This document shows positions 1,086-49,326 of a DNA stretch of 64,000 nucleotides, in pieces. A program made the translations under genes and the position numbers. The stretch is from TPA_inf: Saccharomyces (taxonomy: Eukaryota): NCBI GenBank assembly GCA_000146045.2, contig BK006943.2, positions 448,001 through 512,000 on the forward strand. The letters are read 5' to 3'. The notes beneath the pieces were generated by a model, which had not been told where the DNA came from, did not search any database, and saw only the letters and a list, made by a program, of their open reading frames with translations. The first letter of the stretch is position 1; every line of letters starts with the position of its first letter.

Positions 1086-1109
1086 ATTAATCAGACGCGT
1101 CTGATTAAT
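1086..1109. promoter_or_regulatory. 24-bp perfect palindrome centred on an MluI/MCB element (ACGCGT).
   Basis: attaatcagACGCGTctgattaat is its own reverse complement. It lies about 100 bp upstream of the POL31 ATG. MCB elements (ACGCGT) are the MBF-bound G1/S elements of DNA-replication genes. Confidence 0.6.

Positions 1110-8066: not shown

Positions 8067-8104
<38 letters not shown>
8067..8104. repeat. (AT)19 dinucleotide microsatellite.
   Basis: Perfect alternating AT run of 38 bp in the MET3 5' region. Confidence 0.95.
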
Positions 8105-16253: not shown

Positions 16254-16450
16254 TTTCGTAGATTATAATTAAGGCGACTTTTCAAATAAAAAAATACTGA
16301 TCGTTGTTTTTTTTTAAATAAATGTTTATCCATTCAATGGACTATAATAAATATTTATATATATATATATATGAAAAGATTGCGAACAAAAAAGATGATG
16401 GAAAAGGAGAATCTCTATATATATATTCATCGATTGGGGCCTATAATGCA

Positions 16451-24158: not shown

Positions 24159-24462
24159 CTAGTTAGATTGCCAAGATGTGTTAAAAGGCAAGATTAACTT
24201 ATGAACATGATCTACAACGTCCTGGTTTTTAAATTCGAGTAAATACGCCTCCTTTTTATCTGTGAATGACAGTCCTGTTCTCCCAAGTCTTTTTACATCA
24301 TGGAGACGGGAGTTATACTCTCTCGGGTACAAGGTTCCTTCAGCATCAGAACAGATCACAAACTTTATCGCAACAACAATTCCTTTATATTCCTGGGAAA
24401 ATATGTCGGTATAGCCTACTCGAGACGGCTTCCAAACATCAGCTTTCGTTTTAACATGTTGC
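24159..24462 (-). pseudogene. Orphaned 3' fragment (about 101 codons plus a stop) of YJR030C, severed from the gene by the Ty1 array.
   Basis: If the Ty array is removed and one GTTGC copy kept, the YJR030C frame (…SVKVRQ) continues as HVKTKADVWKPSRVGYTDIF…WQSN* with no frameshift. The 111-aa ORF at 24159..24494 is this fragment plus 4 LTR-encoded codons. Confidence 0.6.
24458..24462. repeat. Left copy of the 5-bp target-site duplication GTTGC.
   Basis: GTTGC immediately precedes the LTR at 24463. An identical GTTGC follows the LTR at 35972. Confidence 0.8.
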
Positions 24463-24800
24463 TGTTGGAATAAAAATCCACTATCGTCTATCAACTAATA
24501 GTTATATTATCAATATATTATCATATACGGTGTTAAGATGATGACATAAGTTATGAGAAGCTGTCATCGAAGTTAGAGGAAGCTGAAACGCAAGGATTGA
24601 TAATGTAATAGGATCAATGAATATAAACATATAAAACGGAATGAGGAATAATCGTAATATTAGTATGTAGAAATATAGATTCCATTTTGAGGATTCCTAT
24701 ATCCTCGAGGAGAACTTCTAGTATATTCTGTATACCTAATATTATAGCCTTTATCAACAATGGAATCCCAACAATTATCTCAACATTCACATATTTCTCA
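24463..24800 (+). repeat. Ty1 LTR (delta), 338 bp, type 'A' (TGTTGGAATAAAAATCCACTATCGTC…).
   Basis: It carries the TGTTGG and TCTCA termini and contains the TYA ATG at 24760. It appears identical by eye to the LTR at 35635..35972. Confidence 0.9.
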
Positions 24801-26082
24801 TGGTAGCGCCTGTGCTTCGGTTACTTCTAAGGAAGTCCACACAAATCAAGATCCGTTAGACGTTTCAGCTTCCAAAACAGAAGAATGTGAGAAGGCTTCC
24901 ACTAAGGCTAACTCTCAACAGACAACAACACCTGCTTCATCAGCTGTTCCAGAGAACCCCCATCATGCCTCTCCTCAACCTGCTTCAGTACCACCTCCAC
25001 AGAATGGGCCGTACCCACAGCAGTGCATGATGACCCAAAACCAAGCCAATCCATCTGGTTGGTCATTTTACGGACACCCATCTATGATTCCGTATACACC
25101 TTATCAAATGTCGCCTATGTACTTTCCACCTGGGCCACAATCACAGTTTCCGCAGTATCCATCATCAGTTGGAACGCCTCTGAGCACTCCATCACCTGAG
25201 TCAGGTAATACATTTACTGATTCATCCTCAGCGGACTCTGATATGACATCCACTAAAAAATATGTCAGACCACCACCAATGTTAACCTCACCTAATGACT
25301 TTCCAAATTGGGTTAAAACATACATCAAATTTTTACAAAACTCGAATCTCGGTGGTATTATTCCGACAGTAAACGGAAAACCCGTACGTCAGATCACTGA
25401 TGATGAACTCACCTTCTTGTATAACACTTTTCAAATATTTGCTCCCTCTCAATTCCTACCTACCTGGGTCAAAGACATCCTATCCGTTGATTATACGGAT
25501 ATCATGAAAATTCTTTCCAAAAGTATTGAAAAAATGCAATCTGATACCCAAGAGGCAAACGACATTGTGACCCTGGCAAATTTGCAATATAATGGCAGTA
25601 CACCTGCAGATGCATTTGAAACAAAAGTCACAAACATTATCGACAGACTGAACAATAATGGCATTCATATCAATAACAAGGTCGCATGCCAATTAATTAT
25701 GAGAGGTCTATCTGGCGAATATAAATTTTTACGCTACACACGTCATCGACATCTAAATATGACAGTCGCTGAACTGTTCTTAGATATCCATGCTATTTAT
25801 GAAGAACAACAGGGATCGAGAAACAGCAAACCTAATTACAGGAGAAATCTGAGTGATGAGAAGAATGATTCTCGCAGCTATACGAATACAACCAAACCCA
25901 AAGTTATAGCTCGGAATCCTCAAAAAACAAATAATTCGAAATCGAAAACAGCCAGGGCTCACAATGTATCCACATCTAATAACTCTCCCAGCACGGACAA
26001 CGATTCCATCAGTAAATCAACTACTGAACCGATTCAATTGAACAATAAGCACGACCTTCACCTTAGGCCAGGAACTTACTGA
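24760..26082 (+). CDS. TYA1: Ty1 Gag (TYA), 440 aa.
   Basis: [22 protein letters not shown]… canonical Ty1 Gag. The ATG lies inside the 5' LTR. Confidence 0.95.
26062..26068 (+). other. Ty1 +1 programmed ribosomal frameshift heptamer CUU-AGG-C.
   Basis: Exact CTTAGGC. CTT and AGG are Gag codons 435 and 436, and GGC at 26066..26068 is in frame with the TYB ORF. Confidence 0.9.
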
Positions 26083-29000
26083 ATCTACGGTAAATCACAC
26101 TAATCATTCTGATGATGAACTCCCTGGACACCTCCTTCTCGATTCAGGAGCATCACGAACCCTTATAAGATCTGCTCATCACATACACTCAGCATCATCT
26201 AATCCTGACATAAACGTAGTTGATGCTCAAAAAAGAAATATACCAATTAACGCTATTGGTGACCTACAATTTCACTTCCAGGACAACACCAAAACATCAA
26301 TAAAGGTATTGCACACTCCTAACATAGCCTATGACTTACTCAGTTTGAATGAATTGGCTGCAGTAGATATCACAGCATGCTTTACCAAAAACGTCTTAGA
26401 ACGATCTGACGGCACTGTACTTGCACCTATCGTACAATATGGAGACTTTTACTGGGTATCTAAAAGGTACTTGCTTCCATCAAATATCTCCGTACCCACC
26501 ATCAATAATGTCCATACAAGTGAAAGTACACGCAAATATCCTTATCCTTTCATTCATCGAATGCTTGCGCATGCCAATGCACAGACAATTCGATACTCAC
26601 TTAAAAATAACACCATCACGTATTTTAACGAATCAGATGTCGACTGGTCTAGTGCTATTGACTATCAATGTCCTGATTGTTTAATCGGCAAAAGCACCAA
26701 ACACAGACATATCAAAGGTTCACGACTAAAATACCAAAATTCATACGAACCCTTTCAATACCTACATACTGACATATTTGGTCCAGTTCACAACCTACCA
26801 AAAAGTGCACCATCCTATTTCATCTCATTTACTGATGAGACAACAAAATTCCGTTGGGTTTATCCATTACACGACCGTCGCGAGGACTCTATCCTCGATG
26901 TTTTTACTACGATACTAGCTTTTATTAAGAACCAGTTTCAGGCCAGTGTCTTGGTTATACAAATGGACCGTGGTTCTGAGTATACTAACAGAACTCTCCA
27001 TAAATTCCTTGAAAAAAATGGTATAACTCCATGCTATACAACCACAGCGGATTCCCGAGCACATGGAGTCGCTGAACGGCTCAACCGTACCTTATTAGAT
27101 GACTGCCGTACTCAACTGCAATGTAGTGGTTTACCGAACCATTTATGGTTCTCTGCAATCGAATTTTCTACTATTGTGAGAAATTCACTAGCTTCACCTA
27201 AAAGCAAAAAATCTGCAAGACAACATGCTGGCTTGGCAGGACTTGATATCAGTACTTTGTTACCTTTCGGTCAACCTGTTATCGTCAATGATCACAACCC
27301 TAACTCCAAAATACATCCTCGTGGCATCCCAGGTTACGCTCTACATCCGTCTCGAAACTCTTATGGATATATCATCTATCTTCCATCCTTAAAGAAGACA
27401 GTAGATACAACTAACTATGTTATTCTTCAGGGCAAGGAATCCAGATTAGATCAATTCAATTACGACGCACTCACTTTCGATGAAGACTTAAACCGTTTAA
27501 CTGCTTCATATCAATCGTTCATTGCGTCAAATGAGATCCAAGAATCCAATGATCTTAACATAGAATCTGACCATGACTTCCAATCTGACATTGAACTACA
27601 TCCTGAGCAACCGAGAAATGTCCTTTCAAAAGCTGTGAGTCCAACCGATTCCACACCTCCGTCAACTCATACTGAAGATTCGAAACGTGTTTCTAAAACC
27701 AATATTCGCGCACCCAGAGAAGTTGACCCCAACATATCTGAATCTAATATTCTTCCATCAAAGAAGAGATCTAGCACCCCCCAAATTTCCAATATCGAGA
27801 GTACCGGTTCGGGTGGTATGCATAAATTAAATGTTCCTTTACTTGCTCCCATGTCCCAATCTAACACACATGAGTCGTCGCACGCCAGTAAATCTAAAGA
27901 TTTCAGACACTCAGACTCGTACAGTGAAAATGAGACTAATCATACAAACGTACCAATATCCAGTACGGGTGGTACCAACAACAAAACTGTTCCGCAGATA
28001 AGTGACCAAGAGACTGAGAAAAGGATTATACACCGTTCACCTTCAATCGATGCTTCTCCACCGGAAAATAATTCATCGCACAATATTGTTCCTATCAAAA
28101 CGCCAACTACTGTTTCTGAACAGAATACCGAGGAATCTATCATCGCTGATCTCCCACTCCCTGATCTACCTCCAGAATCTCCTACCGAATTCCCTGACCC
28201 ATTTAAAGAACTCCCACCGATAAATTCTCATCAAACTAATTCCAGTTTGGGTGGTATTGGTGACTCTAATGCCTATACTACTATCAACAGTAAGAAAAGA
28301 TCATTAGAAGATAATGAAACTGAAATTAAGGTATCACGAGACACATGGAATACTAAGAATATGCGTAGTTTAGAACCTCCGAGATCGAAGAAACGAATTC
28401 ACCTGATTGCAGCTGTAAAAGCAGTAAAATCAATCAAACCAATACGGACAACCTTACGATACGATGAGGCAATCACCTATAATAAAGATATTAAAGAAAA
28501 AGAAAAATATATCGAGGCATACCACAAAGAAGTCAATCAACTGTTGAAGATGAAAACTTGGGACACTGACGAATATTATGACAGAAAAGAAATAGACCCT
28601 AAAAGAGTAATAAACTCAATGTTTATCTTCAACAAGAAACGTGACGGTACTCATAAAGCTAGATTTGTTGCAAGAGGTGACATTCAGCATCCTGATACGT
28701 ACGATACAGGTATGCAATCCAACACTGTACATCATTATGCGTTGATGACATCCCTGTCACTTGCATTAGACAATAACTACTATATTACACAATTAGACAT
28801 ATCTTCGGCATATTTGTATGCAGACATCAAAGAAGAATTATACATAAGACCTCCACCACATTTAGGAATGAATGATAAGTTGATACGTTTGAAGAAATCA
28901 CATTATGGATTGAAACAAAGTGGAGCGAACTGGTACGAAACTATCAAATCATACCTGATAAAACAGTGTGGTATGGAAGAAGTTCGTGGATGGTCATGCG

Positions 29001-30028
29001 TATTTAAGAATAGTCAAGTAACAATTTGCTTATTCGTTGATGATATGATATTGTTCAGCAAAGACTTAAATGCAAATAAGAAAATCATAACAACACTCAA
29101 GAAACAATACGATACAAAGATAATAAATCTGGGTGAAAGTGATAACGAAATTCAGTACGACATACTTGGCTTAGAAATCAAATATCAAAGAGGTAAATAC
29201 ATGAAATTAGGTATGGAAAACTCATTAACTGAGAAAATACCCAAATTAAACGTACCTTTGAATCCAAAAGGAAGAAAACTTAGCGCTCCAGGTCAACCAG
29301 GTCTTTATATAGACCAGGATGAACTAGAAATAGATGAAGATGAATACAAAGAGAAGGTACATGAAATGCAAAAGTTGATTGGTCTAGCTTCATATGTTGG
29401 ATATAAATTTAGATTTGACTTACTATACTACATCAACACACTTGCTCAACATATACTATTCCCCTCTAGGCAAGTTTTAGACATGACATATGAGTTAATA
29501 CAATTCATGTGGGACACTAGAGATAAACAACTGATATGGCACAAAAACAAACCTACCGAGCCAGATAATAAACTAGTCGCAATAAGCGATGCTTCATATG
29601 GTAACCAACCATATTACAAGTCACAAATTGGTAACATTTTCCTACTCAACGGAAAAGTGATTGGAGGAAAGTCGACAAAGGCTTCATTAACATGTACTTC
29701 AACTACGGAAGCAGAAATACACGCGATAAGTGAATCTGTCCCATTATTAAATAATCTAAGTTACCTGATACAAGAACTTAACAAGAAACCAATTATTAAA
29801 GGCTTACTTACTGATAGTAGATCAACGATCAGTATAATTAAGTCTACAAATGAAGAGAAATTTAGAAACAGATTTTTTGGCACAAAGGCAATGAGACTTA
29901 GAGATGAAGTATCAGGTAATAATTTATACGTATACTACATCGAGACCAAGAAGAACATTGCTGATGTGATGACAAAACCTCTTCCGATAAAAACATTTAA
30001 ACTATTAACTAACAAATGGATTCATTAG
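26066..30028 (+). CDS. TYB1: Ty1 Pol (TYB) reading frame encoding protease, integrase and reverse transcriptase/RNase H. It is expressed as Gag-Pol join(24760..26064,26066..30028), 1755 aa.
   Basis: The frame is open from the frameshift site to 30028. Integrase HHCC and DD35E motifs and the RT YVDDM motif (FVDDMILFS) are present. Confidence 0.9.
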
Positions 30029-30050
30029 ATCTATTACATTATGGGTGGTA

Positions 30051-30382
30051 TGTTGGAATAGAAATCAACTATCATCTACTAACTAGTATTTACATTACTA
30101 GTATATTATCATATACGGTGTTAGAAGATGACGCAAATGATGAGAAATAGTCATCTAAATTAGTGGAAGCTGAAACGCAAGGATTGATAATGTAATAGGA
30201 TCAATGAATATAAACATATAAAATGATGATAATAATATTTATAGAATTGTGTAGAATTGCAGATTCCCTTTTATGGATTCCTAAATCCTTGAGGAGAACT
30301 TCTAGTATATTCTGTATACCTAATATTATAGCCTTTATCAACAATGGAATCCCAACAATTATCTCAACATTCACATATTTCT
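30051..30382 (+). repeat. Shared central Ty1 LTR, 332 bp, type 'B' (TGTTGGAATAGAAATCAACTATCATCTACTAAC…).
   Basis: Its U3 region differs from the two outer LTRs at many positions. The R/U5 end is identical. Confidence 0.9.
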
Positions 30383-31666
30383 CATGGTAGCGCCTGTGCT
30401 TCGGTTACTTCTAAGGAAGTCCACACAAATCAAGATCCGTTAGACGTTTCAGCTTCCAAAACAGAAGAATGTGAGAAGGCTTCCACTAAGGCTAACTCTC
30501 AACAGACAACAACACCTGCTTCATCAGCTGTTCCAGAGAACCCCCATCATGCCTCTCCTCAAACTGCTCAGTCACATTCACCACAGAATGGGCCGTACCC
30601 ACAGCAGTGCATGATGACCCAAAACCAAGCCAATCCATCTGGTTGGTCATTTTACGGACACCCATCTATGATTCCGTATACACCTTATCAAATGTCGCCT
30701 ATGTACTTTCCACCTGGGCCACAATCACAGTTTCCGCAGTATCCATCATCAGTTGGAACGCCTCTGAGCACTCCATCACCTGAGTCAGGTAATACATTTA
30801 CTGATTCATCCTCAGCGGACTCTGATATGACATCCACTAAAAAATATGTCAGACCACCACCAATGTTAACCTCACCTAATGACTTTCCAAATTGGGTTAA
30901 AACATACATCAAATTTTTACAAAACTCGAATCTCGGTGGTATTATTCCGACAGTAAACGGAAAACCCGTACGTCAGATCACTGATGATGAACTCACCTTC
31001 TTGTATAACACTTTTCAAATATTTGCTCCCTCTCAATTCCTACCTACCTGGGTCAAAGACATCCTATCCGTTGATTATACGGATATCATGAAAATTCTTT
31101 CCAAAAGTATTGAAAAAATGCAATCTGATACCCAAGAGGCAAACGACATTGTGACCCTGGCAAATTTGCAATATAATGGCAGTACACCTGCAGATGCATT
31201 TGAAACAAAAGTCACAAACATTATCGACAGACTGAACAATAATGGCATTCATATCAATAACAAGGTCGCATGCCAATTAATTATGAGAGGTCTATCTGGC
31301 GAATATAAATTTTTACGCTACACACGTCATCGACATCTAAATATGACAGTCGCTGAACTGTTCTTAGATATCCATGCTATTTATGAAGAACAACAGGGAT
31401 CGAGAAACAGTAAACCTAATTACAGGAGAAATCCGAGTGATGAGAAGAATGATTCTCGCAGCTATACGAATACAACCAAACCCAAAGTTATAGCTCGGAA
31501 TCCTCAAAAAACAAATAATTCGAAATCGAAAACAGCCAGGGCTCACAATGTATCCACATCTAATAACTCTCCCAGCACGGACAACGATTCCATCAGTAAA
31601 TCAACTACTGAACCGATTCAATTGAACAATAAGCACGACCTTCATCTTAGGCCAGAAACTTACTGA
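30344..31666 (+). CDS. TYA1: Ty1 Gag (TYA), copy 2, 440 aa.
   Basis: Differs from copy 1 at a few residues, for example …[14 protein letters not shown]… versus …[14 protein letters not shown]…. Confidence 0.95.
31646..31652 (+). other. Ty1 +1 frameshift heptamer CUU-AGG-C, copy 2.
   Basis: Exact CTTAGGC in the Gag frame. Confidence 0.9.
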
Positions 31667-34600
31667 ATCTACAGTAAATCATACTAATCATTCTGATGAT
31701 GAACTCCCTGGACACCTCCTTCTCGATTCAGGAGCATCACGAACCCTTATAAGATCTGCTCATCACATACACTCAGCATCATCTAATCCTGACATAAACG
31801 TAGTTGATGCTCAAAAAAGAAATATACCAATTAACGCTATTGGTGACCTACAATTTCACTTCCAGGACAACACCAAAACATCAATAAAGGTATTGCACAC
31901 TCCTAACATAGCCTATGACTTACTCAGTTTGAATGAATTGGCTGCAGTAGATATCACAGCATGCTTTACCAAAAACGTCTTAGAACGGTCTGACGGCACT
32001 GTACTTGCACCTATCGTAAAATATGGAGACTTTTACTGGGTATCTAAAAAGTACTTGCTTCCATCAAATATCTCCGTACCCACCATCAATAATGTCCATA
32101 CAAGTGAAAGTACACGCAAATATCCTTATCCTTTCATTCATCGAATGCTTGCGCATGCCAATGCACAGACAATTCGATACTCACTTAAAAATAACACCAT
32201 CACGTATTTTAACGAATCAGATGTCGACTGGTCTAGTGCTATTGACTATCAATGTCCTGATTGTTTAATCGGCAAAAGCACCAAACACAGACATATCAAA
32301 GGTTCACGACTAAAATACCAAAATTCATACGAACCCTTTCAATACCTACATACTGACATATTTGGTCCAGTTCACAACCTACCAAAAAGTGCACCATCCT
32401 ATTTCATCTCATTTACTGATGAGACAACAAAATTCCGTTGGGTTTATCCATTACACGACCGTCGCGAGGACTCTATCCTCGATGTTTTTACTACGATACT
32501 AGCTTTTATTAAGAACCAGTTTCAGGCCAGTGTCTTGGTTATACAAATGGACCGTGGTTCTGAGTATACTAACAGAACTCTCCATAAATTCCTTGAAAAA
32601 AATGGTATAACTCCATGCTATACAACCACAGCGGATTCCCGAGCACATGGAGTCGCTGAACGGCTCAACCGTACCTTATTAGATGACTGCCGTACTCAAC
32701 TGCAATGTAGTGGTTTACCGAACCATTTATGGTTCTCTGCAATCGAATTTTCTACTATTGTGAGAAATTCACTAGCTTCACCTAAAAGCAAAAAATCTGC
32801 AAGACAACATGCTGGCTTGGCAGGACTTGATATCAGTACTTTGTTACCTTTCGGTCAACCTGTTATCGTCAATGATCACAACCCTAACTCCAAAATACAT
32901 CCTCGTGGCATCCCAGGCTACGCTCTACATCCGTCTCGAAACTCTTATGGATATATCATCTATCTTCCATCCTTAAAGAAGACAGTAGATACAACTAACT
33001 ATGTTATTCTTCAGGGCAAGGAATCCAGATTAGATCAATTCAATTACGACGCACTCACTTTCGATGAAGACTTAAACCGTTTAACTGCTTCATATCAATC
33101 GTTCATTGCGTCAAATGAGATCCAACAATCCGATGATCTTAACATAGAATCTGACCATGACTTCCAATCTGACATCGAACTACATCCTGAGCAACCGAGA
33201 AATGTCCTTTCAAAAGCTGTGAGTCCAACCGATTCCACACCTCCGTCAACTCATACTGAAGATTCGAAACGTGTTTCTAAAACCAATATTCGCGCACCCA
33301 GAGAAGTTGACCCCAACATATCTGAATCTAATATTCTTCCATCAAAGAAGAGATCTAGCACCCCCCAAATTTCCAATATCGAGAGTACCGGTTCGGGTGG
33401 TATGCATAAATTAAATGTTCCTTTACTTGCTCCCATGTCCCAATCTAACACACATGAGTCGTCGCACGCCAGTAAATCTAAAGATTTCAGACACTCAGAC
33501 TCGTACAGTGAAAATGAGACTAATCATACAAACGTACCAATATCCAGTACGGGTGGTACCAACAACAAAACTGTTCCGCAGATAAGTGACCAAGAGACTG
33601 AGAAAAGGATTATACACCGTTCACCTTCAATCGATGCTTCTCCACCGGAAAATAATTCATCGCACAATATTGTTCCTATCAAAACGCCAACTACTGTTTC
33701 TGAACAGAATACCGAGGAATCTATCATCGCTGATCTCCCACTCCCTGATCTACCTCCAGAATCTCCTACCGAATTCCCTGACCCATTTAAAGAACTCCCA
33801 CCGATCAATTCTCGTCAAACTAATTCCAGTTTGGGTGGTATTGGTGACTCTAATGCCTATACTACTATCAACAGTAAGAAAAGATCATTAGAAGATAATG
33901 AAACTGAAATTAAGGTATCACGAGACACATGGAATACTAAGAATATGCGTAGTTTAGAACCTCCGAGATCGAAGAAACGAATTCACCTGATTGCAGCTGT
34001 AAAAGCAGTAAAATCAATCAAACCAATACGGACAACCTTACGATACGATGAGGCAATCACCTATAATAAAGATATTAAAGAAAAAGAAAAATATATCGAG
34101 GCATACCACAAAGAAGTCAATCAACTGTTGAAGATGAAAACTTGGGACACTGACGAATATTATGACAGAAAAGAAATAGACCCTAAAAGAGTAATAAACT
34201 CAATGTTTATCTTCAACAAGAAACGTGACGGTACTCATAAAGCTAGATTTGTTGCAAGAGGTGATATTCAGCATCCTGACACTTACGACTCAGGCATGCA
34301 ATCCAATACCGTACATCACTATGCATTAATGACATCCCTGTCACTTGCATTAGACAATAACTACTATATTACACAATTAGACATATCTTCGGCATATTTG
34401 TATGCAGACATCAAAGAAGAATTATACATAAGACCTCCACCACATTTAGGAATGAATGATAAGTTGATACGTTTGAAGAAATCACTTTATGGATTGAAAC
34501 AAAGTGGAGCGAACTGGTACGAAACTATCAAATCATACCTGATACAACAATGTGGTATGGAAGAAGTTCGTGGATGGTCATGCGTATTTAAAAACAGTCA

Positions 34601-35612
34601 AGTGACAATTTGTTTATTCGTAGATGATATGGTATTGTTTAGCAAAAATCTAAATTCAAACAAAAGAATTATAGAGAAGCTTAAGATGCAATACGACACC
34701 AAGATTATAAATCTAGGCGAAAGTGATGAGGAAATTCAATATGACATTCTTGGCTTGGAAATCAAATACCAAAGAGGTAAATACATGAAATTGGGTATGG
34801 AAAACTCATTAACTGAAAAAATACCCAAACTAAACGTACCTTTAAACCCAAAAGGAAGGAAACTTAGTGCTCCAGGTCAACCAGGTCTATATATAGACCA
34901 GCAAGAACTAGAGCTAGAAGAAGATGATTACAAAATGAAGGTACATGAAATGCAAAAGCTGATAGGTCTAGCATCATATGTTGGATATAAATTTAGATTT
35001 GACCTATTATACTACATCAACACACTTGCACAACATATACTATTTCCGTCCAAGCAAGTGTTAGATATGACATATGAATTGATACAGTTCATATGGAATA
35101 CGAGAGATAAGCAATTAATATGGCACAAAAGCAAACCTGTTAAGCCAACAAATAAATTAGTTGTTATAAGCGATGCCTCGTATGGCAACCAACCGTATTA
35201 TAAATCACAAATTGGCAACATATATTTACTTAATGGAAAGGTAATTGGAGGAAAGTCCACCAAGGCTTCATTAACATGTACTTCAACTACGGAAGCAGAA
35301 ATACACGCGATAAGTGAATCTGTCCCATTATTAAATAATCTAAGTTACCTGATACAAGAACTTGACAAGAAACCAATTACCAAAGGATTACTAACCGACA
35401 GTAAATCTACAATCAGTATAATTATATCCAATAATGAAGAGAAATTTAGGAACAGATTTTTTGGTACTAAAGCAATGAGATTGAGAGATGAAGTATCAGG
35501 AAATCATCTGCACGTATGCTATATCGAAACCAAAAAGAATATTGCAGACGTAATGACCAAACCTCTTCCGATAAAAACATTCAAACTATTAACAAACAAA
35601 TGGATTCATTAG
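31650..35612 (+). CDS. TYB1: Ty1 Pol (TYB) reading frame, copy 2. Gag-Pol is join(30344..31648,31650..35612).
   Basis: Intact frame. Its amino-acid differences from copy 1 are clustered in the RT/RNase H C-terminal third. Confidence 0.9.
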
Positions 35613-35634
35613 ATCTATTACATTATGGGTGGTA

Positions 35635-35972
35635 TGTTGGAATAAAAATCCACTATCGTCTATCAACTAATAGTTATATTATCAATATATTATCATATAC
35701 GGTGTTAAGATGATGACATAAGTTATGAGAAGCTGTCATCGAAGTTAGAGGAAGCTGAAACGCAAGGATTGATAATGTAATAGGATCAATGAATATAAAC
35801 ATATAAAACGGAATGAGGAATAATCGTAATATTAGTATGTAGAAATATAGATTCCATTTTGAGGATTCCTATATCCTCGAGGAGAACTTCTAGTATATTC
35901 TGTATACCTAATATTATAGCCTTTATCAACAATGGAATCCCAACAATTATCTCAACATTCACATATTTCTCA
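35635..35972 (+). repeat. Ty1 LTR, 338 bp, type 'A', the 3' LTR of copy 2.
   Basis: It is preceded by the polypurine tract TGGGTGGTA and followed by the target-site duplication GTTGC at 35973..35977. Confidence 0.9.
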
Positions 35973-38196
35973 GTTGCCTTACTTTAACAGAAGATAACAG
36001 AAGTGAAGAACTTATATATTCTGATGAGTCTTTCATATTAGCCAATTCTGAATTTTCAGTAGATGATCTAGTAACATTACGACTGAAGCATGAAGACGAA
36101 GATACCGTTGATAAAGTTCCTGTGGTGGTTGAGGGTGAAAGGGATGATGTCTGGCTACTTTGTAACTGATATTGTAACACATTCACCAACTTAGCAGCTT
36201 GCGCACAGCGTATAGACAGCGTGAGATCGTGGAGTGTTCCAAATACACTAGCTTTGAAATCAGAGGAAGGAATCCGAAGTTGAACATCTTGTGCCGTTGA
36301 TCTATTGTACTTCCAGGTGGGTTCCAATTTCACAACCAATTTACACTTCTCCTTTTCGAAGTCTTTATATACAATTAGTAAGGTCTCGTTGTCTCCGGAT
36401 AAAATTAAAGACAAACACAGCATGTCCTTACTCAAAGGCACCCATGACTTGCCGTTCCAAAGGGAAACTTTTACCGAATCGTTTTCGAAATATACTGCTC
36501 CTCCAGATGTGTTTATGCTTAACGGAAACGATACATACGTTTCATCAACGTTATCGTCATGGGGGGTTGCTGATACCGGGGTAACTGATTGTTGATTGCC
36601 TGGCAAACTAAACAATGATCTTGAATGATTTTTGGGAATATCGATAGTTAGATTCTTTTTGTTTTTTGAGAAGATGCTTAGTAAAGATGAAGATTTACGC
36701 CGATAAAGCGTTGGCTTATAGAAATCGATATCTGGATCGAATAAATCTTTATCTCGTTTATCCTTTCCATCTTCAGAAATTATACTCTCAGAATCGTCAA
36801 TTTCAGACGCAACACTCTCTATTAGTTCGGGAGAGACACTCTCCAGGCTGAAAGTTTGAGAAGCTGTTCTAATGTTTTTTAAGGTAGGTGTGTCCATATA
36901 TTTAGGCGAGAGAGGTACTTGAATGCTCTTATCCAATTCAATTAGCTTTTCACAACTTAGGGATTCAATATCTTTCAGAGAGGTGTCAAGATCTGAATCT
37001 TCGCTAACTGTTGCCCTCTCACTCATGATTGACAGTGACTCCTCGTCAGGGTATTCATTAGAGGTCTCTATTAAGGAAGACAGACTTCCCGGCAAAGGAA
37101 TTGATCTATGCAGTGTGCGACCATTGTGTATTGTATCTGATATCTTTACAGAGCTAATAGGCATATCGTCATTTCTTTTAGGAGAAGTATAATCAGGGTT
37201 GTTACTCCTAACATAAACCTGTTGAGAAATTTTACTTCCAGATCGCTTGTATTCTTTTGTAGCTGTTGAGTCGAAAAGCTTTCTAATAACATGTTTCCAA
37301 TACTCTTGCCATTGAATAGGATCTTTGCAAGTTAACCTCAATACAATGCTATTATTTATCGGTACCTTTAGTTTTGCTCCACTATCATCAAGTCTGATGA
37401 GATCAAGATCGCCGGACCTAAATGGTCGAAATAGCAGCGACCTCCCGACATTCATTAAGTCATGGTTTCCTAACGCAAGGGATTGGAACAAGTTATCAAT
37501 GGTTTGTAATGTGTATGGCATTTTTTCAGAAAGAACCTCAAATATAGCTATCTCCCCATTATCTAATTCAAGGATTTCAACTAGTTTATTATTGATCGCC
37601 AACTTCTTTACATCTAGTCTGTAATATGCTCTATTTATAACCTTATTGGAATCGATTGGCGGAAGATTAATCAGGGAAACTTCGCCTGATATAACGTCAC
37701 GAACGCTTCCGTATTTCAGTGAGTTACAGCTTATAAAGTCATAGCAACTTTTAAATTTGTATACAAACGCACTGATTAGGGAGCCTAGTCGTACTTCATT
37801 TGTGACATAGAAAATGTCCCTCAACTTATAATAAACCTTGAATAGTAATACCGCAAAAAGCTTTTGTGAATCCATCCTAAAGTATGACATGTTCGCATCG
37901 AGAAGCAAATGCATACATCCAAATAAAAGATTATGATACAAATCGAGTATTTGCGCATCTTTGAATAAACTCTTGTAAGAATTCACTATGGATTGTGTTA
38001 GAGACATGTCATCATGATTTGCAGCATGCTTTCTCAAAATGCATCTCAAGTAACCGCTAATTTTTCTCATTTCATGACCAACTTTAACCATTGGGTCCAA
38101 GCTCGAACCATGGTACCTGCTATGGGACTCACAGACAACGAGTAATCGTTTTAACAGAGTCTCGAAGCTCGCTTCTTCCTTGTTAAATAATTCCAT
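35959..38196 (-). CDS. YJR030C, an uncharacterised 745-aa protein. Its last 4 codons and stop are supplied by Ty1 LTR sequence.
   Basis: The ORF is open 35959..38208. I prefer the Met at residue 5 (MELFNKEE…), giving 745 aa. Codons from the last C of the GCAAC target-site duplication copy onward (…LRNM*) lie inside the LTR at 35635..35972. Confidence 0.75.
35973..35977. repeat. Right copy of the 5-bp target-site duplication GTTGC.
   Basis: It matches 24458..24462. Confidence 0.8.
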
Positions 38197-38403
38197 CCCG
38201 TCTCCCACACAATACTAATTTGCTTGCTCGTTCGTAATTAGAGGAACTTTTACTTGGTTCATGATGAATTTTAATTGAACTGAGGGTAAAAGAGTAATCT
38301 CGATAAGGGTACATTTTTATTTTTCCCATTAAGTGAAATTTCCTTCAAATTATTCTCGAAGCTTTCATGCCATTGGTGACACGAAAAAAAAATCTTGTTG
38401 TAT

Positions 38404-38435
38404 TTTATCTAACGCGTCGCGACGCGTTAGATAAA
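38404..38435. promoter_or_regulatory. 32-bp perfect palindrome containing two inverted MluI/MCB motifs (ACGCGTCGCGACGCGT).
   Basis: tttatctaACGCGTcgcgACGCGTtagataaa is its own reverse complement. It lies about 210 bp upstream of the YJR030C ATG and about 150 bp 3' of the GEA1 stop. Confidence 0.6.
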
Positions 38436-38585
38436 TATAACAGTAAATGATGGTATAAATGCCACCGTCGATATTTAAATGAGATTGCTTATATATCGCA
38501 TTATTACCTGCGAAAATCTAATTTACGACTCCTTGAAAAAATTCCATCATACTAAGTTTCTTGGTATAGTTACATTATCGTTGGT

Positions 38586-41500
38586 CTACTCCTTCTCGAT
38601 TTCCCTCTTAGAAATAATCAACTCTTGCAACTGCCTTTCCACCGTAGGATCATCTACATACTTGTTAAATACGTTAAGCACTCTCAAAAAAGTTTCGTTA
38701 CTTGTTACGCCTTCCACAAGTTGACCCAAGAAGATTTTAGAAAGAACGGATAAAATGCTAGTAATTCGTTTCATCTTGACATCTTGGATTTCATCCAACT
38801 CAAAAATCGGTAATAATCCTGTCTCTAGTAGGTTATCCACCGCAACTTTTTCCGTACGTAGTTGACTTGCTCGAGATAACAGAATGTTCTCTAATGCTTG
38901 CAATGCTTGCATACCTAGTTCGTCACAGGGATTGAGGCATTGATGGGCGAGACCTTGAATAGCAGCTATAATCTCATTCTTGTTGAGTGCTGAATTACTC
39001 CTCCCAACAGTCGAAAGTAGGTCTGCAGTTATATTAATGGAACGACTAGAAAGATCAATAATAGAACGGTATGGATTGGATTCAGGTGCTTCACACCCAT
39101 CCTCGACTGAATTTTCATAATTTTGTTCCCATTTTGTGCCAACGGCACCTGCACATGACATTTCATCAAGCAGACTTAATATGTTCATAAAGTTCCCATC
39201 ATCTACAAAGATATCACCATTTTGAATGTATTTTTCCAAAAATGTGTAGACGGCAAATTGGCGGTCTTTGGCTGATATTAATATCCTTAAAAAATTCCAA
39301 AATTTTACATTTTTGAGAGCCCGCTCATTGTATTTTACGTCATTGAGATGTGTAAACAGATCATTTATTACTTGCTTCCCCCATTCACTTTCATAATATT
39401 TAGTATTGAAGATTTCATTTTTTACCAAAAAGTCGTGTTCTATTAAATCACTTAAAATGTCCCGTGGATTATCAAATCTCGAAACCAAAAACATTTTATA
39501 CGAGGCAAGTCTTGCAATAGCCTCCTTGGAAAGGCCATCTAAATTCGAAATATTAATCATATGATCAGCAATTAGTGCTCCAAATTCTTGTCCATAAGAA
39601 GCCTCTGATATTAATATAATGGATATTTCCAACAAAAAGAGAAGTTCTTGTTCGAAATAGGGCGAATTTTCACTCGTTTTTTCAATCACAAGTGAAGAGA
39701 GAAGAGTTTCAATCATCTTAGGACTGACGAGTTGATTGTTCTCAAAGACTGAACTGAGAGGATGGCTAGCCTTAACGCACTCAAATGCTTTAATGGAAAA
39801 ATCGATGTCTTCTTCCGAAGGTTCTTCATCGCCTTTCAAGTAAGAGGCGAAAGTAGACAGAAGGCTTCTGCTCATCTTTGCCTTGCGGATCGATATATCT
39901 GGATCTGGCAATGGTAGTTCAGGAAGTTTCAAGAGTGAATGAAAGTTTGTAAAAAATGGTAAATTAGGTTCCATCAATAAATTCTCGAATAATTTCAAAA
40001 TGAGTTGCACAATCTGGTTCCATAGTCTGGTAGAAACAATGCTAGGATCACTTATTTCTTTAATGATTTGAAAGTACAATACGGTACATAACTGAGCCTT
40101 AAAGTTTTGTCCAAGTCTTATACTCTGGTTACTAACGGATATCTTCGACCCAGTGTCTTCGACGAATATCTCGACCAAAGGAATACTGTCAACATCTAGC
40201 TCCACCGCTTTTGCGCTACTTTGTGCCAATGTTGTCATTTCTCCCAGATGAAGTACAGTATCATTATATGACTGGTCAAAAGAAAAGTAATAGTTGATAA
40301 ATGTACACTTACTAATGGCGTCCAAGATACGTAATGATATTTGATCACTGGAAGCAACTGTGAATATTTTGAATAAAGTCTTCAGGATAATATCTCTAAC
40401 ATTTGAGAAAATTGCTTTCTCATACTGAAGTATGTCTATTTGCGCTAACTTAGAAATAGGGTTTGTGAAATCTCTTTGCATCTCTGTCATCACAGATGTT
40501 GAGGATATTAAGTTATTCCAGGCATCTTCAAACCACCTTTCATTTCCATGATGTTCTTCAGGCATTACTATTTCCTTAACTTTGATGGACGTGTAAATTT
40601 TATGCAAATACCAACGAGGAAAATCTTTTCCATTGTAGCATCCTCGTAAATTGTTAGAGTAGTCATCAAAAGTCATATGGTCTTTAACCTGCGGGTTATG
40701 TGAATCGGTATTTAACATGATTATCGAATAACTTAACACAAACACAGAGTCTGCATCAGGCTGTACATGAATGATGTCATCTTCTGTCATTGACTCTGAG
40801 CCATTTTTTCCTGCTTTTTTATCCTCTAACTCCACTTTATCATTGCTTTGATCAGCAGAATATTTTGATGAAAATGCTTCAACGATTCTTTCAATCTGTT
40901 GAGATTCCCCTGGTAATCTGAATTTCGTCAGCAAAATTCTGATCGCTTCATCAACCCTTAACCCTTTAAAATCGAATAGATCTATAAATTCTTTTAACAA
41001 TGAAGTTTTTTTCGGATCACAAAGTAATAGACCGATGGTTTTCTTATTTAAACGTCCGTTATTGAGAAACAAAAATGAAGCAATGTCTCTATTAGAATCC
41101 GAATCAATGAATCCTTTTTCAATTAACATTTGAATGCCTTTCTTTGCCTTTTCATTAAATGTTTCAACGCATAATATGAATTCAGTCTTTCTGTCTCTCT
41201 GTTTCAAAATATCAATTTCTTTCTGATTTTTTACGAATTCTGCCCTATCAAATCTCTGCAGATCATTGTATATATTTTCAATAAGCGAAAGTACACCTTC
41301 TAGGCAAATTGGAGGAATGTTGTTAGAGGTATTAACGGCCGCCGCTGGTAAAGAAAATTTAGTTAGCTCTTTTATAAAGTCAATCGAAAGATCCGACCTA
41401 TCCAAATTACAATCGAAATTTACAAAAAGTTGCAAAAAGAAAGCGGGAGAGTGAATCCACAGTATTGAAAGTTGTTCAATAATTAATTCCCTGATTGCAG

Positions 41501-42812
41501 GTGGTTTTTGCTTACTAACGTCACCACTGATTGTGGTATCCTCTAGAATTTCGAATATTCTCCTTAAAGTCAGTTCAATCTGCATAGGCAAATAATCACC
41601 CAATATCACAACCAAACTCGTGAATAATTGTAAAGTTGCTTGCAAAAGAGAATACTGGGTAGAACTTTGTATAATGAATAAAACACTTTTAAATATTGGA
41701 TCAGAAATTAAGCTGAATAACCGGGGATATAGAGGAAATTTGTCACCGGATATTTCAATGGCTGCATTGATTAACTGTAGAGATAATTTCATGGCCGAAG
41801 TTGTGTGCTTCATTCTATTCTCTGGCATAACCAGTGATAACAATAATCCAAGATAATCCTTTATAACTGTTATTCCGTAATTTGGCTCGACATTTTCGGC
41901 TTTCTCAGCCGTTTCCTCATCATTTTCCTGTTCCCTTATGACCTGTTGGACTGGCTTCTCATTTTTATTATCGTCTGCAACAGCACTGTCATCATCAGTG
42001 CTACTCAAATCGTTATCAGAGGTAGTCGTACCTATAATGTCATCCTTCAAATTATTGTCGGTGTAACTTTCATCATTGATATATTTTTCTGTTTTTGTAG
42101 GTGGATCTAGTAACTTCAACTTTGTAAATAGTTTAACGGTTATCCCTGCAATTGTAACTTCAGCCGTTTTCCTCAAAACCTCGCTTCTCTGCGTATTACA
42201 TGCCAAGGAAAGTGTCGTTTGTAAAACATCGTAGATTATAGTATCGGAGAGATAGTCTCCAAAGGAAGAGGTTATAATATCGCGTAGTAATGTTACAACT
42301 TTTAATAAAACAGAGTCGTCCGAAATTTGCTTTGAAGCTTCAAATCTACAATGTGTAAGCGCAACAACGGTTTCCCTAACGGCAATTTGAATATCATTAA
42401 ATGTTTTGTTTATGATTTTTAGTGTAAAAACTTTCTGCAACGAGTCCAGAGCCAGAGAAGTAGTATAACCCGATACTGAACTAGCGCTGACTATTTCTAA
42501 AAATGGTTTCAAAAGTTCCAAGGCGTTTAATGAATCTAAACCCTTCAAGTCGTTAATTTTTAGCCGCAGCTGTACTAAACCAGATATCAGAGGATCATGA
42601 TAGCTAGAAGTAGGCAAATTGTGGAAGCTGTCAACAAACGAATCACTTTGACTCAAGAATATATCACTACCTCCGCCCAGCAACGCGGCCACACTTGTTT
42701 GTGATTTATCTCTGGACTGCTTGTTCATGGCAGAACAAAGATTGATGCACTCTTTGACAATCATCGTAGCTGGGTTCACGGCCAAAACAGTTTCCATTGG
42801 CACGTCGTGCAT
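38586..42812 (-). CDS. GEA1: ARF guanine-nucleotide exchange factor (Sec7 domain, GBF1 family), 1408 aa.
   Basis: Full ORF with a Sec7 domain. Its size and position match GEA1 (YJR031C). Confidence 0.85.
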   Translation of the reverse strand: MHDVPMETVLAVNPATMIVKECINLCSAMNKQSRDKSQTSVAALLGGGSDIFLSQSDSFVDSFHNLPTSSYHDPLISGLVQLRLKINDLKGLDSLNALELLKPFLEIVSASSVSGYTTSLALDSLQKVFTLKIINKTFNDIQIAVRETVVALTHCRFEASKQISDDSVLLKVVTLLRDIITSSFGDYLSDTIIYDVLQTTLSLACNTQRSEVLRKTAEVTIAGITVKLFTKLKLLDPPTKTEKYINDESYTDNNLKDDIIGTTTSDNDLSSTDDDSAVADDNKNEKPVQQVIREQENDEETAEKAENVEPNYGITVIKDYLGLLLSLVMPENRMKHTTSAMKLSLQLINAAIEISGDKFPLYPRLFSLISDPIFKSVLFIIQSSTQYSLLQATLQLFTSLVVILGDYLPMQIELTLRRIFEILEDTTISGDVSKQKPPAIRELIIEQLSILWIHSPAFFLQLFVNFDCNLDRSDLSIDFIKELTKFSLPAAAVNTSNNIPPICLEGVLSLIENIYNDLQRFDRAEFVKNQKEIDILKQRDRKTEFILCVETFNEKAKKGIQMLIEKGFIDSDSNRDIASFLFLNNGRLNKKTIGLLLCDPKKTSLLKEFIDLFDFKGLRVDEAIRILLTKFRLPGESQQIERIVEAFSSKYSADQSNDKVELEDKKAGKNGSESMTEDDIIHVQPDADSVFVLSYSIIMLNTDSHNPQVKDHMTFDDYSNNLRGCYNGKDFPRWYLHKIYTSIKVKEIVMPEEHHGNERWFEDAWNNLISSTSVMTEMQRDFTNPISKLAQIDILQYEKAIFSNVRDIILKTLFKIFTVASSDQISLRILDAISKCTFINYYFSFDQSYNDTVLHLGEMTTLAQSSAKAVELDVDSIPLVEIFVEDTGSKISVSNQSIRLGQNFKAQLCTVLYFQIIKEISDPSIVSTRLWNQIVQLILKLFENLLMEPNLPFFTNFHSLLKLPELPLPDPDISIRKAKMSRSLLSTFASYLKGDEEPSEEDIDFSIKAFECVKASHPLSSVFENNQLVSPKMIETLLSSLVIEKTSENSPYFEQELLFLLEISIILISEASYGQEFGALIADHMINISNLDGLSKEAIARLASYKMFLVSRFDNPRDILSDLIEHDFLVKNEIFNTKYYESEWGKQVINDLFTHLNDVKYNERALKNVKFWNFLRILISAKDRQFAVYTFLEKYIQNGDIFVDDGNFMNILSLLDEMSCAGAVGTKWEQNYENSVEDGCEAPESNPYRSIIDLSSRSINITADLLSTVGRSNSALNKNEIIAAIQGLAHQCLNPCDELGMQALQALENILLSRASQLRTEKVAVDNLLETGLLPIFELDEIQDVKMKRITSILSVLSKIFLGQLVEGVTSNETFLRVLNVFNKYVDDPTVERQLQELIISKREIEKE

Positions 42813-49009: not shown

Positions 49010-49303
49010 TTATTTATGAAAATTGGCCTGTAAATATATACATAAATAAATATATGCGTCAAGCTCTTTTATTCGGTTTGTCCAGTAATCCTCTTACAAT
49101 ATATATATATATATATACGCATGTAGCGTATTCAAGAACATTACATTTAAAAAATAGAGGGTAGAACAATAAAAATGCACTTAACAAGTTCCGTAAGTAG
49201 AAATTATAATCAGTCTAAGTACAAATTTATACCTTAGCTTCATTTCAGTTAAGGGCGATGCAATAAAAGTGGAAGAAAAAAAAAGAAGGGAAGAGGTTTG
49301 ATA

Positions 49304-49326
49304 ATATATATATATATATATATATA
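49304..49326. repeat. (AT)n microsatellite, about 11 units.
   Basis: Alternating AT run just upstream of the RAD26 ATG. Confidence 0.9.

Follow-up and report, generated by a model that had tools for sequence, protein, structure and literature searches.

The window analysed here, a continuous stretch of DNA of 64,000 nucleotides, was examined for the genes and features that surround a short palindromic sequence in one of its promoter regions. A minus-strand ORF of 745 codons plus stop (35959–38196, with its ATG at 38196) was shown to encode a protein that is 85% identical to S. paradoxus Rbh2p and that contains the Pfam domain PH_41, and this identity led to its assignment as YJR030C/RBH2. The homologue search performed with this ORF did not include S. 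cerevisiae Rbh2p or its paralogue Rbh1p (YJL181W) among its matches. Upstream of RBH2, and likewise on the minus strand, is an ORF encoding a 1408-amino-acid Sec7-domain protein (38586–42812), which we take to be GEA1. Its transcription runs in the direction of the palindrome, and the RBH2 promoter overlaps with the 3′-end region of this gene within an intergenic region of 389 bp. The gene order Sec7 gene, RBH2, 3-HAO, aldolase II, LSM and Mer2 was found to be common to S. paradoxus, S. mikatae, S. uvarum, S. kudriavzevii and S. eubayanus. The description of YJR030C as uncharacterised, made in a first-pass annotation of this DNA, is partly outdated, as the gene has since been named RBH2, has received a PH-like, Ran-binding-domain-like fold assignment (PMC5091641) and represents a validated residual-sugar QTL gene (PMC3504119).

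The RBH2 ORF in the window represents an allele truncated by Ty1, the ancestral gene having comprised 840 codons. Homology to the 840-amino-acid orthologues ends at residue 741, which corresponds exactly to the end of a Ty1 LTR (35972), and the final codons of the ORF (LRNM and the stop codon) are derived from this LTR. The missing ~100 codons are located at positions 24165–24464, beyond a tandem Ty1-Ty1 array (24463–35972) that encompasses three LTRs and is associated with a 5-bp target duplication (GTTGC), indicative of an ordinary insertion. In Ty-free strains, the RBH2 ORF is intact, with 840 codons. S288C-derived strains carry the Ty1-truncated reference allele, which is of relevance to studies of this gene.

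Within the intergenic region, positions 38404–38435 (TTTATCTAACGCGTCGCGACGCGTTAGATAAA) were confirmed to form a perfect palindrome of 32 bp, consisting of two 16-nt arms with 100% complementarity and without a spacer. This candidate upstream activating element of RBH2/YJR030C spans positions −208 to −239 relative to the RBH2 ATG (38196, minus strand) and is located 151 bp 3′ of the stop codon of the Sec7-family ORF (38586–38588). Its presumed rarity was borne out by a scan of all perfect palindromes, in which it was the sole non-(AT)n palindrome with arms of at least 13 nt across the 64-kb window. Base composition predicts 3.5×10⁻⁵ palindromes of this kind per window, or 0.0066 for a genome of 12.1 Mb, and first-order Markov simulations of the window (n=200) generated a maximum arm length of 12.

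The palindrome contains two ACGCGT MluI cell-cycle boxes, designated here as MCB 1 (38412–38417), which is the closer of the two to the RBH2 ATG, and MCB 2 (38422–38427). The boxes are separated by 10 bp from centre to centre and are located at −221 and −231 relative to the ATG, with a self-complementary centre, TCGCGA (38417–38422), which provides a third CGCG core. Four ACGCGT hexamers were observed in the window compared with 4.2 expected, and it is the arrangement of the hexamers that stands out, their number being ordinary. The first-pass annotation had described the two boxes as inverted; both are indeed present, but 'inverted' is meaningless for a self-complementary hexamer. Since ACGCGT is its own reverse complement, orientation is defined only for the flanked form ACGCGTTA, which is generated at MCB 2 by its outward flank and which points outward for each box.

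To place these boxes in an evolutionary context, the orthologous intergenic regions of S. cerevisiae, S. paradoxus, S. mikatae, S. kudriavzevii, S. uvarum and S. eubayanus were aligned. An exact-match look-up with SUI2 retrieved S. cerevisiae strains only, and no other species. The ACGCG core of MCB 2 was present in all six species, as ACGCGT in five and as ACGCGA in S. eubayanus, and at least one ACGCG core was located between −219 and −239 from the ATG in 6/6 species. The other box, i.e. MCB 1 in the gene-sense alignment, was retained in four of the six species, being intact in S. cerevisiae, S. paradoxus and S. eubayanus and represented by TCGCGT in S. uvarum, and its counterpart has decayed to CACGT in S. 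mikatae and to AACGC in S. kudriavzevii. An extra ACGCGA was observed ~14–26 bp downstream of the aligned boxes in S. kudriavzevii (~26 bp) and S. uvarum. This pattern resembles an ordinary turnover of sites, with the need for MCBs remaining constant. Judged by the alignment, two boxes in exactly this arrangement are not strictly required, because S. mikatae possesses a single ACGCG core and S. kudriavzevii has lost the second box but carries an ACGCGA ~26 bp away. Beyond the genus, MCB-like sites were observed upstream of distant homologues, with two ACGCGT motifs in V. polyspora and a single TCGCGT in Maudiozyma.

Conservation was not restricted to the boxes. An SCB-like motif, CACGAAA (38380–38386, plus strand; TTTCGTG in RBH2 sense), followed by an A-tract, is located 18 bp promoter-proximal to the palindrome and was invariant in the six species. 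A block of ~29 bp (38350–38378, minus strand; CACCAATGGCATGAAAGCTTCGAGAATAA on the sense strand) was nearly invariant in the same set. Furthermore, a TATATA motif (38490–38495, minus strand) located ~95 nt after the GEA1 stop codon was present in 6/6 species, and may represent an 'efficiency element' of the GEA1 3′ end. One MCB core and the SCB are thus shared by all six species and the symmetry by four, having been lost in S. mikatae and S. kudriavzevii.

Regulation of YJR030C by MBF (Mbp1-Swi6) is established knowledge rather than a novel finding. Ferrezuelo et al. 2010 (PMC2911115), whose combined score for YJR030C is 9.1 for MBF and −2.79 for SBF, list the gene as MBF target number 33 in their Additional file 3, in an entry with a cell-cycle peak of 17, the value that is also given for POL3, CLB5 and RAD53. 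Transcription factor binding is recorded in that entry for Iyer 2001, Simon 2001, Lee 2002 and Harbison 2004, four ChIP-chip studies whose resolution is at the level of the promoter and not of the base. The same table counts two ACGCG motifs within 200 bp of the YJR030C TSS, as it does near the TSS in most of the first 33 MBF entries, and it indicates that five computational studies had earlier classed YJR030C as an MBF target. According to the tabulated wild-type arrays, Cln3 induction of YJR030C corresponds to log2 values of 0.82 at 20 min and 0.52 at 40 min. This induction is listed as absent in swi6Δ, mbp1Δ swi4Δ and cln3Δ strains, and as delayed or reduced in the single mutants (0.13, 0.46 and 0.42 in swi4Δ; 0.25 and 0.41 in mbp1Δ). 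Furthermore, an independent ensemble clustering study (PMC3627109) assigned YJR030C to a 19-gene core cluster together with CDC45, POL2, POL3, RNR1, RAD27, RFA2, MSH2, SMC1 and SMC3, and an 'MBP-1 binding site' had already been mentioned for YJR030C in an older annotation paper. A literature search for RBH2, by that name, together with Mbp1 did not return any report, and mutagenesis of the two RBH2 boxes was not found in the literature searched.

The published record is therefore in agreement with the strong MBF site and the G1/S expression that had been predicted from the sequence: YJR030C is a published MBF target with two ACGCG motifs near its TSS, it peaks with replication genes and shows Swi6-dependent Cln3 induction, and the anticipated Mbp1/Swi6 ChIP signal is found at promoter level in the four ChIP-chip studies. 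We infer from the motifs, their position and their conservation that MBF binding may be attributed to these particular bases, and the palindrome is very probably the MBF upstream activating sequence (UAS) of RBH2. In the mechanism proposed here, the two ACGCGT boxes, one helical turn apart and with a third CGCG core between them, would be bound by MBF, which would in turn switch on RBH2 in late G1/S, binding and expression having been demonstrated by the published ChIP and expression data. SBF (Swi4-Swi6) would provide additional input, probably via the conserved CACGAAA 18 bp away or via the MCBs, and the conserved SCB is a plausible basis for the Swi4-dependent induction that is left in mbp1Δ.

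The evolution of the symmetry was explored within S. cerevisiae using 12 haplotypes, a small sample that was chosen via an exact match to the CPR7 protein of the window and that is biased towards related haplotypes. The palindrome was intact in 12/12 haplotypes, yet it occurs as two alleles, TTTATCTA...TAGATAAA and TTTCTCTA...TAGAGAAA, each of which is a perfect palindrome. The former was found in the window and in nine other loci, and TTTCTCTAACGCGTCGCGACGCGTTAGAGAAA was found in the loci L012 and L013. The alleles differ at positions 38407 and 38432, which are mirror partners (positions 4 and 29 of the palindrome) and which carry complementary changes, with A and T, respectively, in the window allele, and C and G in L012, L013 and S. 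paradoxus. An intermediate allele, altered in one arm, was not observed among the 12 haplotypes. The A...T allele is considered to be derived, since S. paradoxus, S. uvarum and S. eubayanus all exhibit C...G at the mirrored pair, and this derived allele forms a GATAA motif on each arm. With the divergence measured as 0.52%, any mirrored pair of complementary substitutions would arise with a probability of ~1.4×10⁻⁴.

L013 is a strain locus, and L012 is a metagenome contig, representing the sole locus obtained from a metagenome scan with a conserved 23-mer, and is 99.3–99.5% identical to the window. On the basis of this identity and of the S. cerevisiae-type flanks of the contig, the possibility that the C...G allele had introgressed from S. 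paradoxus was ruled out. In another strain (L017), a 1-nt deletion in the flank extends the palindrome to 36 bp, a tentative observation as it concerns a homopolymer length change in one assembly.

Comparable changes were observed between species. S. paradoxus was shown to possess the same perfect palindrome with one mirrored change, and in three arm pairs both partners have been replaced among the species (A-T/T-A, C-G/T-A and C-G/A-T), compared with zero to one two-sided changes in control pairings that were slid by 1–3 columns. Similarly, 85% of cells were paired in the real pairing versus 38–62% in the slid controls. The centre of the element also varies: S. mikatae and S. kudriavzevii share the spacer TCGCAT, and the self-complementary TCGCGA closes the palindrome in S. 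cerevisiae and S. paradoxus. In S. uvarum (TTTTACGCG-TCACAT-CGCGTAAAA) versus S. eubayanus (TTTTACGCG-ATGTGA-CGCGTAAAA), identical arm cores enclose 6-nt spacers that are exact reverse complements of each other. The S. eubayanus arms measure 16 nt (CGTTTTCTTTTACGCG / CGCGTAAAAGAAAACG), and in their extension relative to S. uvarum one side has gained TT by insertion and the other carries a T-to-A change. Apparent intermediates were encountered between species, i.e. T-G at one pair in S. kudriavzevii and T-T at another in S. mikatae, suggesting that some of the changes may have been stepwise. A Logan contig from a relative of S. uvarum and S. eubayanus (L011) stops a few bases before the palindrome and was left out of this comparison.

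Mirrored changes, multi-nucleotide homogenisation of arms and spacer inversion are recognised signatures of template switching. In this scenario, the GC-rich self-complementary core would allow the nascent strand to fold back during DNA synthesis, upon which one arm would be templated by the other (quasi-palindrome template switching), and repeated switching would re-equalise the arms, close the spacer and, at times, invert it. The predicted DNA hairpin has a free energy of −14.1 kcal/mol for the A allele (z-score −5.3) and −15.2 kcal/mol for the C allele (z-score −6.0). Perfect dyad symmetry outside the ACGCGT cores appears not to be needed for MBF, and is best explained as a mutational by-product. 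We therefore favour, at a probability of roughly 80%, a joint explanation in which the palindrome acts as a cell-cycle UAS of RBH2 and owes its symmetry to template switching as a by-product. As to what maintains the palindrome, template switching, rather than selection on symmetry, is the probable agent, although selection for complementarity and a template-switch bias are inseparable by sequence alone.

Several other explanations for the symmetry were weighed against this reading. A mere chance arrangement of two functional MCBs would be in keeping with the chance-level number of ACGCGT hexamers in the window, but can practically be dismissed: with two ACGCGT motifs already in place at a distance of 4 nt, base frequencies give a probability of ~10⁻⁶ for a self-complementary spacer combined with eight complementary flank pairs, and mirrored changes preserve the symmetry in other strains and species. 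Alternatively, the extended dyad symmetry may itself be selected through a two-fold symmetric complex, formed either by an MBF dimer over both boxes or by a pair of GATA factors on TTATC...GATAA in the derived allele. The 10-bp distance, which puts both boxes on the same helix face, would suit such a complex, as would the retention of symmetry in four of the six species, the GATAA motif on both arms of the derived S. cerevisiae allele and the two ACGCG motifs near the TSS of most MBF targets in the first 33 table entries (PMC2911115). Protein readout, however, predicts fixed flank bases, whereas the flanks were shown to covary while complementarity is kept, the spacers of S. uvarum and S. eubayanus, which are inverted relative to each other, differ at 6/6 bases, and S. 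mikatae and S. kudriavzevii have lost the symmetry, so that selection of this kind is considered unlikely. The two GATAA motifs are, moreover, oriented head-to-head, which is not an arrangement known from Dal80-type sites.

The covariation could also reflect RNA structure, if a hairpin in GEA1 3′-end or read-through transcripts were to act on termination or stability. The palindrome lies 151 nt past the GEA1 stop codon on the transcribed strand, just beyond the conserved TATATA, its predicted RNA stem is perfect over 14–16 bp, two apparent intermediates represent G-T pairs, which are tolerated by RNA, and yeast poly(A) sites are enriched for short inverted repeats nearby (PMC6420913). The inverted repeats at poly(A) sites are, however, rich in ApT/TpA or in A/T tracts (PMC6420913), unlike the RBH2 palindrome. 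An Rfam scan of positions 38100–38700 (E≤1) did not identify any family that reached the threshold, yielding only generic miRNA-like sub-threshold hits, and neither S. mikatae nor S. kudriavzevii has kept the pairing, despite the conservation of GEA1. Rnt1 substrates carry an AGNN tetraloop, whereas the loop in question is CGCG, and a role as RNA hairpin is consequently regarded as very unlikely. Finally, the first-pass annotation had suggested that the palindrome could extrude as a cruciform or hairpin and act as a fragile or recombination-prone site. In its fuller form, this proposal includes replication hairpins and a possible tie to the nearby Ty insertion. The perfect symmetry, the lack of a spacer and the stable hairpin predicted for the element speak for it, and the template-switch explanation also implies some hairpin formation, but the element is just 32 bp long with a GC-rich centre (CGCGTCGCGACGCG), and 12/12 S. 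cerevisiae haplotypes as well as S. paradoxus have kept it without deletions or rearrangements. The palindromes known to cause breaks in yeast are considerably longer. In addition, no perfect short-spacer inverted repeat of S. cerevisiae has the dimensions that render it susceptible to extrusion (Strawbridge et al., PMC2908449), and the fragile-site proposal, which is held to be highly improbable, was not sustained. With regard to the Ty insertion, the distance given was correct (LTR end at 35972, 2,432 bp away), but a link to the palindrome was not found, the Ty pair 2.4 kb off being flanked by a normal 5-bp target duplication (GTTGC) within the RBH2 ORF. A tRNA scan of the 18–42 kb region did not reveal a tRNA (Pol III) gene that would account for the position of the Ty elements.

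Palindromic MCBs were also observed elsewhere. The only other promoter MCB in the window (1095–1100), located 102–107 bp upstream of POL31, sits in the middle of a perfect 24-bp palindrome (ATTAATCAGACGCGTCTGATTAAT). Of this element, S. mikatae and S. uvarum have conserved the ACGCG core and the right arm, but with a left arm that is non-complementary, such that among the three species compared the left arm is a perfect complement in S. cerevisiae only; a single asymmetric SNP was present in one S. cerevisiae strain. The V. polyspora RBH homologue is associated with a 46-bp near-perfect palindrome (22/23 pairs) with ACGCGT at either end, which probably arose independently, as its sequence is unrelated to that of the Saccharomyces palindrome. 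The RBH2, POL31 and V. polyspora palindromes together raise the unproven idea that the RBH2 palindrome is a recurrent template-switch hotspot, and that such fold-back at MCB cores generally creates, duplicates and repairs paired MBF sites. We regard this generalisation as possible but rather doubtful. If true, template switching would represent a mutational route to 'two-box' G1/S promoters, and some paired transcription factor sites would seem to owe their duplication and persistence to template switching during replication and not to selection on each base, with consequences for the interpretation of covariation and 'conserved symmetry' in promoters.

As a regulatory element, the RBH2 palindrome does not offer anything new, and its value lies in providing a small, naturally occurring case in which a known mutational process operates on a functional transcription factor site. 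A single locus displays three patterns, i.e. two perfect-palindrome alleles in one species, mirrored changes between species and inversion of a spacer. The evolution of the symmetry is the part that was absent from the literature searched, and most likely represents a new example of a known process. The 16-mer core ACGCGTCGCGACGCGT was not found in a yeast context in the literature searched, which returned only an unrelated mouse paper, and a search for extended palindromy as a feature of MCB promoters did not yield anything relevant.

Compared with known systems, the RBH2 promoter resembles MBF-regulated G1/S promoters such as those of CDC45, CDC21, RFA2, POL32 and RAD53, which likewise carry ACGCGT or ACGCG motifs, typically two, within ~200 bp of the TSS. 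According to published data, these promoters and that of YJR030C share binding by Mbp1-Swi6, a peak in late G1/S and an induction that depends on Cln3 and Swi6. RBH2 differs from the other MCB promoters in that its two boxes, together with 8 bp on each flank, constitute a single perfect 32-bp palindrome, an arrangement that neither defines MCB promoters nor is known to have been described for them. Recombinogenic long palindromes, for which PMC7999016 describes inverted Alu repeats in yeast and human PATRRs, are also perfect inverted repeats capable of forming hairpins or cruciforms. As described there, however, these repeats are much longer and typically AT-rich, whereas the RBH2 palindrome measures 32 bp, has a GC-rich centre and does not exhibit any sign of instability.

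A closer parallel is found in the quasi-palindrome hotspots of E. coli and of yeast reporters, in which imperfect inverted-repeat arms are corrected via intra- or inter-strand template switching (PMC3820800, PMC7202029), and where, as at RBH2, the changes extend or restore the complementarity of the arms. The reporter assays concern measured mutation events, whereas the process at RBH2 is deduced from natural variation only. At the genome scale, Strawbridge et al. (PMC2908449) reported an excess of perfect inverted repeats in the yeast genome, for which the expected number of copy length >15 is below one, and proposed processes that drive inverted repeats towards perfection. Furthermore, Rozenfeld et al. 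2026 (PMC13100816) described 107 loci of S. cerevisiae at which template switching has homogenised and expanded promoter inverted repeats. Their screen applied a threshold of at least three changes relative to S288C, which the RBH2 locus would not reach because it involves only two changes and because S288C is already perfect. Similar to GRE2, ERT1 and the YKL007W/YKL008C intergenic region in that study, RBH2 carries a promoter inverted repeat over transcription factor sites close to the TSS, and it shares with those loci the occurrence of alternative perfect inverted-repeat variants at identical coordinates, homogenised arms and inverted spacers. Unlike those loci, the signatures at RBH2, which are known here from sequence comparison only, recur between species besides being found within a single one.

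The perfect 32-bp palindrome in the RBH2/YJR030C promoter (38404-38435), which carries two MluI cell-cycle boxes (MCB; ACGCGT), exists within S. cerevisiae as two perfectly symmetrical alleles that differ at positions 38407 and 38432. The derived A...T allele, present in the window, gains a GATAA motif on both arms (38405-38409 and 38430-38434) where the ancestral allele (C...G) reads GAGAA, and the resulting pair is arranged head-to-head (TTATC ... GATAA), with 20 bp between the motifs. The 6-nt spacers that separate the MCB-containing arms in the sister species S. uvarum (TCACAT; locus L005, 2767-2794) and S. eubayanus (ATGTGA; locus L008, 2753-2790) were shown to be an exact inversion of each other. 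A short-read Logan contig from a relative of these two species (L011) stops at its position 1, a few bases from the expected palindrome start, and the inverted repeat may have broken the assembly there.

Stronger conservation than that of the RBH2 palindrome was observed for a 29-bp block (38350-38378; sense strand CACCAATGGCATGAAAGCTTCGAGAATAA), which is near-invariant in six Saccharomyces species. The block includes TTCGAGAA, the sequence of which resembles two heat-shock-element units.

The RBH2/YJR030C gene of the window is a Ty1-truncated allele. Its ORF (35959-38196, minus strand) represents the upstream portion of a split gene, the ancestral 840 codons of which were broken after residue 741 by a tandem Ty1-Ty1 array (24463-35972; target duplication GTTGC) with three LTRs (24463-24800, 30051-30384 and 35635-35972). 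The final four codons and the stop codon of the ORF are supplied by the LTR, while the severed remainder of approximately 100 codons is located on the far side of the array (24165-24464, minus strand). Ty-free strains, represented by a metagenome contig (L012) and most of ten strain loci (L013-L022), retain the full 840-aa ORF. In one S. cerevisiae assembly (GCA_030035895.1; L021, 836-1615), the RBH2 gene call spans only 259 aa; this suggests that the reading frame of that strain is shifted or ends early, which, if true, would constitute a second way to lose full-length Rbh2p.

A second perfect palindrome centred on an MCB (24 bp; ATTAATCAG ACGCGT CTGATTAAT) was identified at 1086-1109 (-116 to -93 relative to the POL31 start codon at 1202); a window is expected to contain approximately 0.007 palindromes of that length by chance. 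It is unbroken in nine of ten other S. cerevisiae strains, the exception (L023) harbouring one asymmetric SNP within it. As the only conserved parts of this palindrome in the S. mikatae and S. uvarum POL31 promoters are its ACGCG core and right arm, perfect symmetry is confined to S. cerevisiae among the three species compared. Taken formally, no 'palindrome' of the window is longer than an (AT)19 microsatellite (8067-8104), with shorter (AT)n or (TA)n runs at 853-869, 16356-16372, 49099-49117 and 49304-49326.

Beyond Saccharomyces, the Vanderwaltozyma polyspora RBH-homologue locus (L010) contains a 46-bp near-perfect palindrome (GACGCGTAAACCTTAAACTATAA|TTATAATTTAAGGTTTACGCGTC; 22 of 23 pairs) at approximately 2591-2639, corresponding to -410 to -362 from the ATG, and this palindrome carries an ACGCGT at each of its outer ends. 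Since its sequence is unrelated to that of the Saccharomyces palindrome, the two palindromic MCB pairs, both lying upstream of RBH-family genes, are probably independent of each other.
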